From Anaerolineae bacterium (GTDB lineage Bacteria; Chloroflexota; Anaerolineae; JAAYZQ01), in assembly GCA_023544525.1 (NCBI GenBank), contig JAMJFU010000003.1, positions 1 through 54,086 of the forward strand: DNA of 54,086 nucleotides, in the 5' to 3' direction. A program made the position numbers and the translations under genes. The notes under the pieces were generated by a model. It saw nothing but the letters and a program-made list of their open reading frames with translations. It ran no database searches and was not told where the DNA came from. The first letter of the stretch is position 1, and each line of letters begins with the position of its first letter. Below are positions 32,627 to 38,151 of the stretch, one piece after another.

Positions 32627-33601
32627 TCAGCTGGTCGATGAGTGCTGCCCTTCGAGCTCTTCGCGCACGGTGCGGTACAGTTCGGCGGCCCTGAGCTCCG
32701 CCAGGCAGTAGCATGGTCCACGCAGGGCACGGGCCAGGTTTTTGGCCAGGCCTCGGTCGTAGGCCTCGTGCTCCATATTGACGACCACCGAATGGATGCC
32801 CGTCTGCCCGATCAGGTCGGCCATTCTCTGTGCTTCCTCCTGTGGTGGCGTATCGGTCAACGCTACGTTGCCGGCCCCATCGGTCAGAAGGATCAGCAGG
32901 GGCATGGCCTCTGGGTATAGGCGGAGTTCGCGGCGAAATACGCGATAGGCCATCATGAGGCCCGCCGACAACGGGGTCTTGCCACCCACAGGCAGGTGAT
33001 GCAGCGCTTGCTGAGCCAGCTCTACGCTTGAGGTGAAGGGGAGCACCAGGCGAGCCTCTTCCTTCTGGAAGACAACCAGACCGACGCGGTCGCGCTTCTG
33101 GTATGCGTCGACAAGGAGCGACATGATGGCTCCCTTGGTGGCTTCCATCCGCTGGGCACCGGCCATGCTCCAACTGGCATCCACTACGAAAAGGATGAGG
33201 TTAGAAGCCCGTCGAACGCGTACCTTCTTTTGCACGTCCTGCGGCAGGATGGTGAGCCTGCCTTGCTCTGCTTCTCGCTCCAGCTGCTGGAGGGCAGCCT
33301 GGCGGATGGTCGCGTCGAGGGCAATGTCGCTGAGCTCGCCGTCTGCTGGCCGGGCCTGGATGTACCGGCCCCGCTTGCGGCTTGTTCGGGTGCTGGACCG
33401 CTTTCCGGCGCTGCGTCGTGTCAGCCGGTCCATGGGGGTCTCGAGGCGGCGCGACTTGAACATCTCGCCGATGGGCACTACCATGTCGACCTCTTGTCCG
33501 CTGCCGAGGCCAAGGGGGTCTGTGGACTGCCCTTTAATGGGTGCGCCAGCCCCCCCGGTGTCGATTTCACCGGTTTCCGGGGGCTGGTCATCCGTCACAT
33601 C
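32627..33601 (-). CDS. chlD: Linker + VWA half of a ChlD/BchD-type chelatase subunit (reached by -1 frameshift)
   Basis: RGRYIQAR, DIALDATIRQAA, MIDAS DASWS, GGKTPL and LLTDG motifs. Lies in the -1 frame relative to the upstream AAA ORF, with no clear SD. Confidence 0.85.
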   Translation of the reverse strand, partial: DVTDDQPPETGEIDTGGAGAPIKGQSTDPLGLGSGQEVDMVVPIGEMFKSRRLETPMDRLTRRSAGKRSSTRTSRKRGRYIQARPADGELSDIALDATIRQAALQQLEREAEQGRLTILPQDVQKKVRVRRASNLILFVVDASWSMAGAQRMEATKGAIMSLLVDAYQKRDRVGLVVFQKEEARLVLPFTSSVELAQQALHHLPVGGKTPLSAGLMMAYRVFRRELRLYPEAMPLLILLTDGAGNVALTDTPPQEEAQRMADLIGQTGIHSVVVNMEHEAYDRGLAKNLARALRGPCYCLAELRAAELYRTVREELEGQHSSTS

Positions 33602-33610
33602 TTTTTTTTT
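33546..33610 (-). other. Programmed -1 frameshift signal (A9G slippery site plus downstream hairpin)
   Basis: GGA AAA AAA AAG ATG TGA in frame 0 versus TGG AAA AAA AAA GAT GTG in frame -1. GC-rich hairpin at 33587-33546. Confidence 0.8.
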
Positions 33611-34713
33611 CCAGGCGACGGTTCGACCATGGAGGCGCCCGGCGCTTTTGACTGGTCCGCCTCGCGGCGGGCTTCTTCCAGCCTGTTGGACAGCTCCTCC
33701 ATGCGATTTTCGGTCTCTTGGAACGGCATGCGTTTCAGCCGATGGGGCAGGGCTAGTTCGGCTGCAACGAGGATATCCAGTTGGGTGATTGCCCTCTCTG
33801 TTGCCCCTGTGCCGTTCTGGGCGAATCGCAGCGCTGCGTGGGCCAATGCTGTTTTCAGGATGACGATGTCTGCCCGGTGGCCGTCGACCTCGAAGCTGGT
33901 GGTGAGTTCGGCGATTGTGTACAGATCCTCTGGCTGGTAGGTGACCGAATGCAGGAGCTGGCGGGCACGGCTGATCTCGAGGCCGAGCTGCTCTTCGTAG
34001 GGCTCCCACTCGGCGCGAAAGCCCTCCGGGTCGCTCTCAAACTGGACAGTGCGTTCCAGGATGGCGACCCGGGCTTGGTGCGCTGGGATGCCCTGGATCT
34101 CGACGCACAGGGCAAACCGGTCGAGGAGCTGTGGTCGCAGCTCACCCTCTTCCGGATTCATCGTGCCTACGAGGATAAACCGAGAAGGATGGCCAAACGA
34201 GATGCCCTCACGCTCCACGACGTTGCGACCCATGGCAGCCGAGTCCAGGAGCAGATCGACGACGTGATCGTCCAGCAGGTTCACCTCGTCCACGTAGAGC
34301 AGCCCGCGGTTTGCCGCGGCCAGCACTCCTGGCTCGAATTTTTTCTGACCGGTCTTGAGCGCCGCCTCGATGTCGAGGGTGCCAACAACCCGGTCTTCGG
34401 TGGCACTCACAGGCAGATCTACGAATCGAGTGCGGCGCCGGCCGACCGGCAGGTCCTCGTCCCTGGCCAGGCGCGCGCGGCAATTGTCGCACAGCCGCTC
34501 CGGACGGCGGGGATCGCAGTTGAATGGGCAGTCGGCCACGACCTCGATCTCGGGCAGGAGAGCCGCGAGAGCGCGGGCCGCGGTAGACTTGGCAGTGCCC
34601 CGTTCACCACGGATCAGGACGCCGCCGATCTTGGGACTGATGGCGTTGAGGATCAACGCCGTTTTCATTGTGTCCTGGCCGACGATAGCCGTAAAGGGAA
34701 ATATGACGTGCAT
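33595..34713 (-). CDS. chlI: ChlI-like AAA+ chelatase ATPase (N-terminal part of frameshifted chlD)
   Basis: FPFTAIVGQ, GERGTAKST, ATEDRVVG, LYVDEVNLL, MNPEEGELRPQLLDRF and LPHR motifs. Confidence 0.92.
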   Translation of the reverse strand: MHVIFPFTAIVGQDTMKTALILNAISPKIGGVLIRGERGTAKSTAARALAALLPEIEVVADCPFNCDPRRPERLCDNCRARLARDEDLPVGRRRTRFVDLPVSATEDRVVGTLDIEAALKTGQKKFEPGVLAAANRGLLYVDEVNLLDDHVVDLLLDSAAMGRNVVEREGISFGHPSRFILVGTMNPEEGELRPQLLDRFALCVEIQGIPAHQARVAILERTVQFESDPEGFRAEWEPYEEQLGLEISRARQLLHSVTYQPEDLYTIAELTTSFEVDGHRADIVILKTALAHAALRFAQNGTGATERAITQLDILVAAELALPHRLKRMPFQETENRMEELSNRLEEARREADQSKAPGASMVEPSPGKKKM

Positions 34714-34719
34714 GAAGGT

Positions 34720-35223
34720 TTAGAATACCTTGAATCGGTCTCGCTTGGCGTTACAGACCGGGCAGCGCTCGGGCGGCCCGCCAATGTGCGTAAATCCGCA
34801 GACTGGGCAGACATAGATCTCGGAGGCATCGATATCATCACCAGCCTCAGCCGCCTCTTTTGCGTCGGCGTACATGTCGGCATGGATCTTTTCAGCCTCC
34901 ATGGCGTAGGTCATGGTCCGCTCGGCGCCTTTTTCCTCTTGGACTTCAGCCACGGAGAGATAGGCCGCGTACATTTCGTCTACTTCAAAGTTCTCGCCGG
35001 CGATGGCCGCTTCGAGATTGGCGACGGTCTTGCCAACACCGCCTAGCTCCTTGAAATGGTTGATGGCATGCACTTGCTCAGCATGAGCAATCGCCCTGAA
35101 AAGGCGGGTGATGTTCGGTTTGCCTTCCTTTTCCGCCTGGGCAGCAAATGCCAGGTACTTGATGTGTGCCTGGCTCTCGCCGGCTAGCGCGCTCTTGAGG
35201 TTCTCTGTGGTCATTGCCTTCAT
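34720..35223 (-). CDS. rbr: Rubrerythrin
   Basis: AGESQA, EQVHA, GENFE and EKIH diiron motifs; rubredoxin-like CPVC...CPVC. Confidence 0.95.
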   Translation of the reverse strand: MKAMTTENLKSALAGESQAHIKYLAFAAQAEKEGKPNITRLFRAIAHAEQVHAINHFKELGGVGKTVANLEAAIAGENFEVDEMYAAYLSVAEVQEEKGAERTMTYAMEAEKIHADMYADAKEAAEAGDDIDASEIYVCPVCGFTHIGGPPERCPVCNAKRDRFKVF

Positions 35224-35277: not shown

Positions 35278-35658
35278 CTAGCTCGGCGTCCGCGGCGTAC
35301 CCAATAGCCTGCGCACCTGTTCCAACAAGCTCAGCACGCCGAACGGTTTCAGTAGATGGCCTGCCACTGGCCCCTTCTGCATGGTCTCGCGGCTGGGAGG
35401 CTCGGCAGACAACAGCACAACAGGCACTGGCTGGCTCGCGAACTGGAGCTCGAAGGCGTCGAGCAGGTTCCATGCTGCCCCATCAGGCAGATCGAGATCG
35501 AGCAGGATGAGATCAGGCCGGCCCTCGAGCAGCTGCTGCAACCCGTGCTCCTCGCTCACTGCCTCGCGCACTTGCAGCCCGAGCGCTTCCAGGTTGGCCC
35601 GGATCAGTTTTCGCATTTGCCAATTATGCTCGATTGCCAGTACGTATCGTTCCGCCAT
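35278..35658 (-). CDS. Single-domain response regulator with an atypical acidic pocket
   Basis: PDLILLDLDLP, LSA and KPF motifs; IEHN replaces the usual EDD. Confidence 0.85.
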   Translation of the reverse strand: MAERYVLAIEHNWQMRKLIRANLEALGLQVREAVSEEHGLQQLLEGRPDLILLDLDLPDGAAWNLLDAFELQFASQPVPVVLLSAEPPSRETMQKGPVAGHLLKPFGVLSLLEQVRRLLGTPRTPS

Positions 35659-35664
35659 GCCCTC

Positions 35665-35731
35665 ATTGTATCGCGACGGCTGTTAGAGGGCCATAAACGG
35701 GCGGCAGTCGTGTGTTAGAGTCCTATTAGAG
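35665..35731 (-). promoter_or_regulatory. -10 box plus three T(G/A)TTAGAG direct repeats (putative OmpR-family boxes)
   Basis: Repeats at 35681, 35713 and 35724; TACAAT 6 nt before ATG 35658. Confidence 0.5.
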
Positions 35732-35760
35732 ATTGTGAAACCGGCCTCGAACCTGGGTCG

Positions 35761-35789
35761 ATCTTAGCACAAGCGCCAGCTAAAGTCAA
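35761..35789 (-). promoter_or_regulatory. Upstream sigma70 promoter for the receiver-rubrerythrin unit
   Basis: TTGACT-N17-TAAGAT with an extended -10. Confidence 0.6.
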
Positions 35790-35818
35790 AGACCAGTTGT
35801 CCCAGGGTCCTTGGCGGT

Positions 35819-36529
35819 TCAGGCTTGGTCTTCCTCCGGTTGGTAGAGCATATAGCCGGCTCCCGGCTGTGTCAAGAGATAGCGCGGCTCGGAGGGCTCT
35901 GGCTCCAGCTTCTGCCGCAGATACCGCATGTAGACCCGCAGATACTCGGTCTCCTCTCCATATTCCGGTCCCCACACCGCCCGGAGTAGCTCGCGATGAG
36001 ACACGACGCGGTTGGGGTTGCTGGCCAGGTAAGATAGGAGCCGGTACTCGGTCGGAGTCAGCTTGACCGCATCACCATCGACGGTGACCCGGTGTTGGGC
36101 AAAGTCGATTTCTACCGGCCCTACCTTAAAATGCTGGCGGCTGAGGATCTCCTCTGGCCACTTGGTGCGGCGCAAGACCGCCTGCACCCTCATGAGTAAT
36201 TCAGTCACGGAGAAGGGCTTGGTCAGATAGTCGTCGGCTCCGACTTCGAAGCCGTGGACGAGGTCGACCTGGGCACTGCGAGCGGTCAGCATGATCACAG
36301 GCACGACCGAGAACTCGCGGATGCGACGGCAGACGGCGTAGCCATCCATCTTGGGCAACATCAGGTCGAGGATGACCAGATCTGGAATCTCCTCCTCGAC
36401 CATTTTGACCGCCTGCTCCCCATCGTCAGCGAGCAAGACTCTGTAGCCCGATGATTCGAGGTTGGCTTTTACCAGCTTCTGGACATGGGGTTCGTCATCT
36501 ACGACGAGGATGCTGGCTTTCTTTGACAT
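35819..36529 (-). CDS. OmpR/KdpE-family response regulator
   Basis: Receiver (VDD, LDLMLP, GADDYLTKPF) plus wHTH (LTPTEY, VWG, LRQKLE). Confidence 0.95.
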   Translation of the reverse strand: MSKKASILVVDDEPHVQKLVKANLESSGYRVLLADDGEQAVKMVEEEIPDLVILDLMLPKMDGYAVCRRIREFSVVPVIMLTARSAQVDLVHGFEVGADDYLTKPFSVTELLMRVQAVLRRTKWPEEILSRQHFKVGPVEIDFAQHRVTVDGDAVKLTPTEYRLLSYLASNPNRVVSHRELLRAVWGPEYGEETEYLRVYMRYLRQKLEPEPSEPRYLLTQPGAGYMLYQPEEDQA

Positions 36530-36540
36530 CGGTGTCCTCC

Positions 36541-38151
36541 TCAGCCTGACCGGGCAGGTCGGTGTGATGTCGGGCTAGCTTGTACGAGTGGTAGACTGAA
36601 ATGGAACGTGCTGCCAACGCCCGGCTCACTATCCGCCCAAATCGCGCCCTCCTGAGCCTCCACGATGGCTTTGGATATCGACAACCCCAGGCCGCTGCCG
36701 CCCACTTTTCGGGTCGAAGCGCTGTCTACCTGGTAGAAACGGTCGAATACATGGGCTAATTGGCCGGATTCGATGCCGATGCCCTCGTCGGCAACGCTTA
36801 CGACGAGCATCTCCTCTCCGGGCACAGCAGTGATGCAAATCGAGCCACCTCCAGGCGAGTACTTGACCGCGTTCTCCACGAGGTTCCGCAGCACCTGGCG
36901 CGTGCGACGAGGATCGGCCATAACCAGGGACGCTCGAGGTGGCAGCCGGAGCTGGAACTGGTGGTCCCGGGTCATCATCTGGAACTCGGCCGCAGTCTCC
37001 TGGATCATGGGGACCAGGTCCATGGGTTCCGGCTCAACGGGCAGTTCTCCTGCCTCGATGCGCGACATGTCAAGAAGGTTGCCGATCAATTCTGATAGGC
37101 GGTCGCTCTCCTCGTCAATGATCGATAGGAACTCACGGCGAGTGGTCTCATCCCACTCCACGTCTTCGCGCAGAAGGGTGGTGGCAAAGCCCTTTATGCT
37201 GGCCAAGGGGGTGCGCAGTTCATGGCTCACCGTGGAGAGCAGCCGTGACTTGATCTCATCCAGTTCTCGCTCGCGCGTGATGTCGTGTAGTAGCAAGCCC
37301 ACGCCCTGCGAGCCCCCTTCTGTATTGTGGATGGGAAAGCTCCGGACCTGCAGCGTGCGGGATTGTGGCTCGTTCAGCATGAACTCGACGGCGGGAGTAT
37401 CTTCGACGTTGGAGGCTGCACTTTGTAGCTCACGAAGCATCCGCTCGGGTTCCTCCACGCGACCTGCGATGGCGCGTCCCAGGTCTTCCAGTGTGCGTCC
37501 AATTAGCGTGAAGGCCGGGAGGTCGAGGATGGTCTCTGCCCAGGGGTTGGCATAGGAGATCCGGCCATGGTGATCCATCAGGATCAGGCCGTCCACCAGG
37601 CTGTTCATGACGCTGTCGAGGGTGGCCCGGCGCCGCTCGGCGTCGTCGATGAGCTGGGCATTGGCGATGGCGATGCCAATCTGATTCCCGATGGCGGTCA
37701 GAAGCTCGGTATCTTCCAGTGCAAAGTCCCGAGGGTTGCGACTCTGGATGTTGAGCAGCCCGAGTACCTCCCCCCGGGCCATCAGCGGCAGGCGCACACA
37801 GGAGCGAAAGCCCTCCCGCAGGCAGGCCGTGCGCGTCCGCGCACCGTGGCTGGCCAGGTCGCCAACGACCAACATCTGCCGTGTCTGGACCGCCCTGCCA
37901 CACAGGCACTCGTGAGAGCCGATGTGCGATTCTTCCTGGACATAGGTGTCGGAGACACCCTGGTAGGTGTGCAGCACGAGTTCGCCCGTCTCTTCGTCGA
38001 GCAAAAAGATCTCCCCGGACTGCTCTCCGATGACCTGCAGGGTTGTCTCGAGCGCACCCTGGAGGATCTCGTCCAGATCCTGGGTGCAGTTCACCTGAGC
38101 GGCAATCGCCGTCAGAGCGGCTAATTCTTTACCGCGCGTTGTCTCGGACAC
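36541..38151 (-). CDS. GAF-PAS sensor histidine kinase (cytoplasmic)
   Basis: GAF, PAS, H box SHELRTPL, NAVKYS, DEGIG and GSGLGL; no TM helices. Confidence 0.93.
   Translation of the reverse strand: MSETTRGKELAALTAIAAQVNCTQDLDEILQGALETTLQVIGEQSGEIFLLDEETGELVLHTYQGVSDTYVQEESHIGSHECLCGRAVQTRQMLVVGDLASHGARTRTACLREGFRSCVRLPLMARGEVLGLLNIQSRNPRDFALEDTELLTAIGNQIGIAIANAQLIDDAERRRATLDSVMNSLVDGLILMDHHGRISYANPWAETILDLPAFTLIGRTLEDLGRAIAGRVEEPERMLRELQSAASNVEDTPAVEFMLNEPQSRTLQVRSFPIHNTEGGSQGVGLLLHDITRERELDEIKSRLLSTVSHELRTPLASIKGFATTLLREDVEWDETTRREFLSIIDEESDRLSELIGNLLDMSRIEAGELPVEPEPMDLVPMIQETAAEFQMMTRDHQFQLRLPPRASLVMADPRRTRQVLRNLVENAVKYSPGGGSICITAVPGEEMLVVSVADEGIGIESGQLAHVFDRFYQVDSASTRKVGGSGLGLSISKAIVEAQEGAIWADSEPGVGSTFHFSLPLVQASPTSHRPARSG

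Follow-up and report, generated by a model that had tools for sequence, protein, structure and literature searches.

Genes that encode two chelatase subunits through a frameshift are already on record. Frameshifted chlD genes ('fs-chlD', from the 'magnesium chelatase' cluster of fs-genes) were described by Antonov et al. (2013, NAR; PMC3711429), and Kuznetsov, Milenkin and Antonov (2022; PMC9227772) reported fs-chlD in Brevefilum fermentans, Anaerolinea thermophila, Ornatilinea, Longilinea and Levilinea. The second paper presents these Chloroflexi as lacking chlH/cobN, the chlorophyll pathway and the B12 pathway, and calls the function of the gene unknown (PMC9227772). When chelatase fs-genes were assayed in E. 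coli reporters, 63%, 40% and 10% shifted product was obtained for 11, 9 and 7 A's, respectively (PMC3711429). The dnaX genes provide parallels for the slip itself: in Thermus thermophilus, polymerase slippage on 9 A's gives tau and gamma, and in E. coli the ribosome makes a -1 frameshift on A_AAA_AAG (PMC3711429). The first-pass annotation of the locus described here had stated that frameshifted chlD genes yield two chelatase subunits and that A9 runs permit transcriptional slippage, and both statements agree with these sources. The recoding device is already published (2013-2022), including in cobN-less Anaerolineae, and our gene is another member: as a recoding event, it adds one to a family described since 2013. 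Antonov's 2020 article in Mol Biol Evol reportedly deals with fs-chlD genes as well. What our comparison may add to the description of fs-chlD is small, namely an A-run that is kept in any phase and in unbroken homologues, and a hairpin that is not conserved.

The window (the whole stretch of DNA analysed, 54,086 nucleotides from an Anaerolineae bacterium) carries the chlD-like locus entirely on the minus strand, with the following features.

34720..35223, minus strand: rubrerythrin gene (Pfam Rubrerythrin and a rubredoxin-like domain)
33595..34713, minus strand: frame-0 ORF for the short product, a ChlI-type AAA+ ATPase with 372 aa (stop TGA at 33597-33595)
33601..33610, minus strand: predicted slippage site, A9 (33610-33602) followed by G (33601), read in frame 0 as GGA AAA AAA AAG
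32627..33600, minus strand: 324 further codons read in the -1 frame, for an acidic Pro-rich linker followed by a VWA/MIDAS domain
33546..33587, minus strand: GC-rich hairpin (predicted fold) with a 9-bp outer stem, a 5-nt bulge, a 6-bp inner stem and a 7-nt loop
31010..32503, minus strand: glycogen/starch synthase gene (GlgA-type; Pfam Glyco_transf_5 and Glycos_transf_1), downstream

The frame-0 ORF ends with CCT GGA AAA AAA AAG ATG TGA, its stop lying two codons past the A9 run. The -1 frame contains no stop from 34009 to 32627; its continuation begins with GAT at 33601-33599, ends with the stop at 32629-32627 and, when read from the run, gives KKKDVTDDQPP... Joining residues 1-371 of the first ORF to these 324 codons produces a fused protein of about 695 aa, and the two non-productive frames of the window shut after 2 and 4 codons. 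The hairpin begins 13 nt past the G of AAG, and the rubrerythrin stop precedes the chlD-like ATG by 6 nt. Each statement that the first-pass annotation had drawn from the letters (the ORF, the A9 run, the -1 frame, the products of 372 and 695 aa, the position of the hairpin and the 6-nt gap to rubrerythrin) matches the sequence.

We consider it probable (roughly 85%) that this is an fs-chlD gene of the TIGR02442 type, in which one gene gives two products through a one-base slip on A9. Standard reading would yield the 372-aa ChlI-like AAA+ ATPase, terminated two codons beyond the run, and a slip of one base on A9 would lead into the -1 frame and yield the protein of ~695 aa, in which the same ATPase would be followed by the acidic, Pro-rich linker and then by the VWA/MIDAS domain. 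By analogy with the published reporter tests of other members, both products are presumably made, and we infer that they assemble in the manner of ChlI and ChlD.

The two halves of the gene have clear relatives. In the short ORF, Pfam recognises Mg_chelatase, AAA_lid_2 and AAA_5, NCBIfam gives 487.5 bits for positions 1-341 of TIGR02442 and 406 bits for TIGR02030 (BchI-ChlI), and the closest solved structure is ChlI (6l8d_A, E 1.1e-100), with BchI (1g8p_A) matching at 4.3e-87. The -1 part matches Pfam VWA_2 and VWA, positions 380-640 of TIGR02442 (271.4 bits) and the integrin-I (VWA) domain of BchD (2x31_A, E 2.6e-18). The TIGR02442 cut-off of 779.45 bits applies to the whole protein, and the window's halves were scored separately (487.5 and 271.4 bits); eight unbroken relatives score 786-811 bits, above the cut-off. 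Motifs of catalytic importance are kept on both sides of the junction: Walker A (G..GTAKST) and Walker B (DE) are identical in 36/36 homologues, and of the MIDAS residues DxSxS is found in 36/36 and the T and D in 35/36. Protein identity in the VWA half is 59-86% among relatives. A conserved Cys4 motif was also seen within the ATPase part.

Compared with the described systems, the window gene resembles fs-chlD in its ChlI-like AAA+ ORF, its VWA part in the -1 frame and its poly-A at the junction, and nothing essential is different. With Thermus dnaX it shares an A9 run at the boundary of an AAA+ domain, a short and a long product (predicted for the window gene) with a common ATPase, and off-frames that soon close; it differs in that the long product lies in frame 0 in Thermus, whereas in the window gene and most of its relatives the short one does. 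The stimulator of E. coli dnaX is a downstream stem-loop. In the window, A_AAA_AAG likewise stands in frame ahead of a hairpin, but the spacer is 13 nt, and homologues conserve neither the hairpin nor the heptamer in frame. As regards ChlI/ChlD (BchI/BchD) and CobS/CobT, the sequence match to ChlI, BchI and the BchD VWA domain is strong; a difference is that the D-type protein of the window has an AAA+ module identical to that of the I-type protein, with intact Walker motifs.

Conservation was followed in a set of 36 homologues (the window and 35 loci) and in a wider sample of 78 loci (from 80), at least 7 of the 80 being the same contigs as loci of the first set; the relatives are kin, so that the counts are not independent events. 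Of the 36 homologues, 27 have a split gene whose VWA part lies in the -1 frame, 8 have an unbroken one, and one (L056) is irregular. The -1 split thus recurs in 26/35 of the relatives' loci, always into -1, and in 64/78 of the wider sample, which together with the kept catalytic motifs upholds the earlier proposal of I-like and D-like products from a single gene via a -1 shift at the A-run. A run of A7-A10 stands at the junction in 36/36 homologues (A9 in 29, A10 in 4, A7 in 3); in the wider sample, 70/78 loci have a run, 58 of those 70 have A9, 64 of them are split into -1, and A9 is found in 53 of these 64. This exceeds chance: A/T runs of 9 or more number only two in the genome (4.53 Mb, 63.1% GC), and the run occupies the same junction site in 36/36 homologues. 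The other A/T run of this length lies outside any long ORF and is terminator-like.

The phase of the run varies, with 12, 23 and 29 split genes in phases 0, 1 and 2, so that all three occur, and A_AAA_AAG stands in frame in only 26/65 split genes. Both facts show the homopolymer to be the target of selection, rather than Lys codons or a heptamer of the dnaX type, and on comparison of these sequences the conserved signal is the run itself and not heptamer plus hairpin. The -1 frame of L037 and L043 becomes open just 16 nt ahead of the frame-0 stop, which confines the shift to the run. Unbroken homologues also have an A9, A10 or A7 run (8/8 in the set of 36, 5/13 in the wider sample). Because the run is retained in these genes and their -1 frame shuts within 4-12 codons, they could yield the short product via the same slip.

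An error of sequencing or assembly at the homopolymer, the true gene being a plain chlD with A10, or a recent pseudogene, would account for the split in a trivial way. Homopolymers are error-prone, the Logan contigs that cover the run are of low depth and the relative L056 appears broken at several places. Nevertheless, the same split is found at the same run in 26/35 independently assembled relatives and in 64/78 loci of the wider sample, the VWA half keeps its MIDAS (35-36/36) and its 59-86% protein identity, and the unbroken relatives mostly have A9 and not A10, so that the two forms are not merely one A apart. In addition, one contig from another study spans the run gap-free and reaches at least 31 nt past it on each side, and three further contigs cover the run and end 16-19 nt past it. 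The A9 call rests on the assembly, the one bridging contig and conservation, and not on depth; on these grounds the A9 split is very unlikely to be an assembly error, and error and pseudogene taken together come last among the explanations weighed here. It is also very improbable that the locus consists of two separate genes, the VWA protein starting at GTG 33598 or by termination-reinitiation with no fusion made. The -1 frame does have this GTG 3 nt past the run, overlapping the frame-0 stop, but in the alignment the codon is GTG in only 3/18 same-family sequences (GTA, CTG, GCA etc. in the others), no Shine-Dalgarno-like sequence is found ahead of GTG 33598, and unbroken full-length homologues exist in 8/41 genomes. 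To join with ChlI, ChlD requires its N-terminal AAA+ part, which again argues for a fusion. Phase variation in DNA, in which a replication slip in the run would toggle the long product within the population, is equally hard to credit. A/T homopolymers do slip during replication also (PMC3711429), and relatives include split and unbroken forms and run lengths of A7-A10. Against this, A9 with a -1 split is almost fixed across genera, not mixed, the unbroken forms are also mostly A9, the low-depth Logan contigs over the run have no indel, and the protein is of a cytoplasmic housekeeping type, not a surface one.

If the slip on A9 is the correct reading, it could be made by RNA polymerase, inserting one A so that the mRNA has A10, as happens in Thermus dnaX, or by the ribosome through tandem slippage, and both routes lead to an identical protein sequence. 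We lean slightly towards the polymerase. The RNA:DNA hybrid is ~9 nt long and a ribosomal heptamer requires only 7, and an exact 9 is kept in 29/36 and 58/70 although 7 would suffice for the ribosome. In keeping with transcriptional slippage, the run of ~9 A's is conserved as nucleotides in any frame, with off-frames that soon close. An in-frame A_AAA_AAA is present in every phase of an A9 run, so that ribosomal slippage as such is compatible with the sequence. The strongest of the rivals is a -1 frameshift made by the ribosome alone, as in E. coli dnaX, with a tandem slip on A_AAA_AAG that depends on the hairpin, yet we regard it as rather unlikely. In its favour, A_AAA_AAG stands in frame in the window and the hairpin there is strong: it lies within a minimum-free-energy fold of -43 kcal/mol (106 nt; z = -3.98, with 0/200 shuffles folding as well), and its z is -3.95 against synonymous-codon resampling and -3.35 against dinucleotide shuffles. 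It is far more stable than its codons require, which would fit a stimulator in the window's lineage, and the junctions of L034, L053, L055 and L041 are likewise extra-stable (z -2.90, -3.03, -1.76 and -1.64, respectively). A review moreover describes chelatase frameshifting on A_AAA_AAR with stems of weakly conserved sequence (PMC5009743).

However, the hairpin is not conserved in the family. RNAalifold on 18 same-family junctions gave 0 consensus pairs, no covariation was found for the window's pair set (54.5% paired; shuffle mean 54.4%), and on average the 36 homologues have no extra stability (mean synonymous-codon z -0.13, p 0.56). Ribosomal stimulators usually lie 5-9 nt from the slip site, and the spacer in the window is 13 nt. 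Much of the pairing potential comes from Pro-rich followed by Gly-rich coding (CCN...GGN). The window has the heptamer of E. coli dnaX, but a conserved stimulator at short spacing is missing. The hairpin is strong in the window gene and not conserved in the family, its role being uncertain, and the first-pass view of hairpin and in-frame A_AAA_AAG as the signal does not hold across homologues (0 RNAalifold pairs, mean z -0.13, heptamer in 26/65). Polymerase slippage keeps our slight preference, and an A9 run kept in any phase, in split and unbroken genes and without a conserved hairpin makes fs-chlD a clean class in which to test polymerase against ribosome.

The partners expected of a chelatase motor are missing from the genome as searched. 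A search of the own genome for the large subunit CobN/ChlH (PF02514) gave 0 matches; as the assembly is incomplete (91.6% complete, 515 contigs), this falls short of proof of absence. The earlier remark on missing cobN/chlH agrees with this search; its description as unusual does not hold, the same absence having been reported for Anaerolineae-type Chloroflexi (PMC9227772). CobN/ChlH was not found in 39/41 genomes searched; PF02514 matches at E <= 0.001 occur in the other 2/41, and only that in G025 is above the cut-off. The own-genome search likewise found no CbiX, CbiD or CbiC, and a HemB fragment is present. With neither the large subunit nor the corrin genes found in these searches, the gene set as found would not make up a functional three-subunit Mg-chelatase or aerobic cobaltochelatase. 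A chelatase-type motor that is near universal in the class without a large chelatase subunit must serve another client. The available part of a preprint on how cobaltochelatase motors assemble (10.64898/2026.10.09.757910) does not mention frameshifting or orphan motors.

We looked for such a client among the neighbouring genes. Rubrerythrin is the immediate upstream gene, on the same strand, in 16/18 same-family loci against 0/16 loci of other families, and in only 5/78 loci of the wider sample. The GlgA-type gene is downstream in 10 same-family loci and divergent upstream in L059. No recurrent partner emerged from the Pfam domains of 72 ORFs neighbouring 17 distant loci, nor from the 265 neighbour ORFs of the 78 loci, which fell into 192 clusters, the biggest present in 8 loci. 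The idea put forward in the first-pass annotation, metal-centre repair linked to rubrerythrin, finds no backing in this context, the adjacency being confined to the same family (16/18, 0/16, 5/78). It seems improbable to us that the motor is a stand-alone AAA+/VWA remodeller, with an I:D ratio fixed by polymerase slippage, that is cotranscribed with rubrerythrin and loads or repairs a metal centre with a link to peroxide stress. Weak hints of a remodeller are the rubrerythrin gene itself (16/18), an AhpC/TSA gene upstream in L053, a Usp gene upstream in L066 and the Cys4 motif of the ATPase.

The locus reads as a single TIGR02442-type chlD gene that is broken at the junction between its ChlI-like AAA+ ATPase half (I) and its VWA/MIDAS half (D), because both halves match TIGR02442, the ChlI/BchD structures and the expected Pfam domains. 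The elements concerned are:

34713 (ATG) to 33597-33595 (TGA), minus strand: frame-0 ORF of 372 aa, from ORF reading
33610-33602 (nine A's) and 33601 (G), minus strand: candidate slippage site, from the sequence
33587-33546, minus strand: hairpin, from a minimum-free-energy fold
35223..34720, minus strand: rubrerythrin, ending 6 nt before the chlD-like start codon

The frame-0 ORF, which ends CCT GGA AAA AAA AAG ATG TGA, encodes a product matching Pfam Mg_chelatase, AAA_lid_2 and AAA_5, the solved ChlI structure 6l8d_A (E 1.1e-100) and positions 1-341 of NCBIfam TIGR02442 ('putative cobaltochelatase', 641 positions; 487.5 bits). The -1 frame stays open over 34009-32627 on the minus strand and reads KKKDVTDDQPP... 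from the run, 324 codons up to its stop; this part matches Pfam VWA_2 and VWA, the BchD integrin-I domain 2x31_A (E 2.6e-18) and TIGR02442 positions 380-640 (271.4 bits). Slipping back by one base on the run would thus yield a product of 371 + 324 = 695 aa. The first-pass annotation had every coordinate and number right here (ORFs, A9G, -1 frame, hairpin and rubrerythrin spacing).

The split was then followed across 41 genomes, made up of the one holding the window and those of 40 relatives in its family or class; 38 of the 41 matched TIGR02442 at E <= 1e-30. An unbroken gene above the TIGR02442 cut-off was found in 8/41, and most other matches fell in two pieces. Thirty-five loci were fetched and both halves placed by tblastn, giving 36 homologues with the window: the VWA part lay in the -1 frame in 27, the gene was unbroken in 8 and irregular in one, and an A-run stood at the junction in all 36 (A9 in 29, A10 in 4, A7 in 3). 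Two loci (L037 and L043) pin the shift to the run, since their -1 frame opens just 16 nt ahead of the frame-0 stop. Both halves are under constraint: 36/36 homologues retain Walker A and B, and 35-36/36 the MIDAS residues (DxSxS, T, D). A wider sample from a species-representative genome collection comprised the best 80 of 584 confirmed relatives, nearly all titled Anaerolineae or other Chloroflexota, at least 7 of them the same contigs as loci fetched earlier. Among these best 80, 78 loci had both halves: 64/78 were split at -1 with a run (A9 53, A10 7, A8 1, A7 3), 1/78 was split at +1 with A9, 5/78 were unbroken with the run and 8/78 unbroken without it. As the homologues are all kin, these counts show conservation, not independent events. 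The earlier proposal of one gene for two subunits holds as an interpretation, with the two products predicted by analogy with reporter results published for other members.

Several homologues depart from this pattern. The +1 case (L117, alone among the best 80 of 584) follows an A9C run and may be a rare variant that depends on the loss of one A, or stem from misassembly. The irregular locus (L056, G019:C44) has its VWA part in pieces over three frames, stops early in frame 0 and probably reflects gene decay or poor assembly (genome 76% complete). One relative carries a second, diverged paralogue (L046, G009:C4:294000-307000; identity 56% for one half and 36% for the other) that is likewise split at -1 after an A9C run, so the device is older than the duplication. 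The eight unbroken homologues lacking the run at the I/D junction (L076-L078, L080, L081, L084-L086) look like a clade that lost it; in five of them (L076, L077, L080, L084, L086) a CGAAAC-type heptamer, repeated in tandem three or four times, stands there instead. Also observed was a C-x3-C-x8-C-x2-C motif within the AAA+ module (window 34440-34560, minus strand; residues 61-78 of the AAA+ protein P0001), kept in 35-36/36 homologues and possibly serving to bind zinc or in redox chemistry.

Other explanations of the split fare poorly against these data. An assembly error or pseudogene is scarcely credible, and is ruled out by the conservation of the -1 split, the run and both halves' motifs across homologues; in addition, one contig from another study bridges the run without a gap. 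Independent initiation of a VWA protein at GTG 33598 is very improbable, as the codon at that position is GTG in just 3/18 same-family sequences (read from the alignment) and unbroken genes exist. DNA-level phase variation of the run is similarly improbable, given that A9 and the -1 split are near fixation across genera. The 4.53-Mb genome (63.1% GC) holds only two A/T runs of at least nine, the chlD-like one included. The other, an A9 outside the window and outside any long ORF (G000:C33:35398-35406), has a GC-rich inverted repeat immediately after it, so that the opposite strand reads hairpin then T9; it looks like an intrinsic terminator.

The first-pass annotation had proposed an in-frame A_AAA_AAG heptamer plus hairpin as the signal, a view that is wrong or at least unproven. 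Judged from sequence comparison, the signal kept in evolution is the A-run and not a dnaX-type heptamer with hairpin. Among the best 80 of 584, the run starts at codon position 1, 2 or 3 in 12, 23 and 29 of the 64 genes split at -1, so that the residues encoded near the run differ while nine A's persist; A_AAA_AAG is in frame in 26/65 split genes (the 64 plus the +1 case) and A_AAA_AAA alone in 34/65. The hairpin is not conserved. In the window it begins 13 nt past the G of A9G, within a fold of -43 kcal/mol for 106 nt (z = -3.98, equalled by 0/200 shuffles). Much of the potential for pairing here stems from Pro codons (CCN) clustered ahead of Gly codons (GGN). RNAalifold returned no consensus pairs over 18 same-family junctions, and the 15 pairs of the window's hairpin were 54.5% paired across the alignment vs 54.4% in shuffles. 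Synonymous-codon resampling gave z scores of -3.95 for the window, -2.90 for L034 and -3.03 for L053, with means of -0.13 over 36 homologues (p 0.56) and -0.32 over 28 split genes (p 0.22). The run is also present in unbroken homologues (8/8 in the 36-homologue set; 5/13 among the best 80 of 584), and their -1 frame closes in 4-12 codons; by a slip they could therefore yield a putative short product, as in dnaX.

The long product could arise in two ways: the polymerase would add one A, giving an A10 mRNA, or the ribosome would slip -1 on the run. Both routes predict the identical protein ...PGKKKDVTDD..., so mass spectrometry cannot separate them. A ribosome needs just seven A's, stimulators usually lie 5-9 nt away, and the RNA:DNA hybrid is about nine long. 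We favour polymerase slippage at about 55:45, because nine A's are kept regardless of phase, no stimulator is conserved, the 13-nt spacer is long and the off-frames close quickly (in the window, frame 0 in 2 codons after the run and +1 in 4). Ribosomal slippage, only slightly less probable, has in its favour that A_AAA_AAA is present in every phase of A9 and that the window's hairpin is too strong for a codon accident (synonymous z -3.95); against it stand the lack of a conserved stimulator and a spacer longer than usual. With 11, 9 and 7 A's, published E. coli reporters of frameshifted chelatase genes made the shifted product at 63%, 40% and 10%, and the same paper cites polymerase slippage on 9 A's for Thermus dnaX (PMC3711429).

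Frameshifted chlD genes had, as the first-pass annotation stated, already been described, and the window gene is another instance. Antonov et al. 2013 list a -1 cluster of 23 'magnesium chelatase' genes that carry poly-A runs, the Chloroflexi genus Herpetosiphon included (PMC3711429), and Atkins et al. 2016 mention stems downstream that lack strong sequence conservation (PMC5009743). In the work of Kuznetsov, Milenkin and Antonov 2022, such genes, of a function that the authors call unknown, occur where chlH/cobN and the pathways to chlorophyll and B12 are all missing; Brevefilum fermentans and several Anaerolineaceae are among the organisms named (PMC9227772). Titles and abstract openings yielded nothing further on transcriptional slippage in magnesium chelatase genes or on frameshifted chelatase genes of Anaerolineae. 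The locus offers a clean test case for two questions: which machine does the slipping, and what role an orphan chelatase-type motor plays.

The absence of cobN/chlH, noted at first from the neighbourhood, is borne out genome-wide, a point already made in PMC9227772: CobN/ChlH (PF02514) had no match in the window's genome (91.6% complete), and matched 2/41 genomes, above cut-off in one only. CbiX, CbiD and CbiC were likewise not found in this 91.6% complete genome, and its HemB (ALAD) gene is partial or truncated, the sole match (G000:C90:7986-8261) spanning positions 2-93 of the 317 in the profile, inside an open frame of 183 aa. Many relatives carry a separate ChlI-like gene (~310-365 bits, profile positions 1 to ~330), in agreement with the 'fs-chlD plus chlI' genotype described for Anaerolineaceae (PMC9227772); the window's genome has, after the chlD-like gene, a next-best match of just 42 bits. 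Examples from profile matches are:

G002:C147: separate ChlI-like gene of a relative
G016:C70: separate ChlI-like gene of a relative
G035:C1:1160591-1161592: separate ChlI-like gene of a relative

A client linked to rubrerythrin, such as metal-centre repair, had also been suggested; this is wrong or at least unproven, as the linkage is family-restricted. The next gene upstream, on the same strand, encodes rubrerythrin in 16/18 same-family loci; rubrerythrin occurs in 0/16 loci of other families and in 5/78 loci among the best 80 of 584, these five all from the closest relatives, and is absent beside the L046 paralogue. The neighbourhoods are so varied that context gives no client: 265 neighbour ORFs fell into 192 clusters, the largest found in 8 loci only, and Pfam revealed no recurrent partner among 72 neighbours. 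Stress- or oxygen-related neighbours are anecdotes: directly upstream on the same strand, an AhpC/TSA peroxiredoxin in L053 (5193-5939) and a universal stress protein (Usp) in L066 (5797-6216), both distant lineages, and, near L046, a hemerythrin, accompanied there by a DUF364/DUF4213 'putative heavy-metal chelation' protein and a 4Fe-4S ferredoxin. Just upstream of rubrerythrin in the window (35278-38151, minus strand) lie a GAF-PAS histidine kinase, an OmpR-type response regulator and a single-domain receiver, a block kept in same-family loci.
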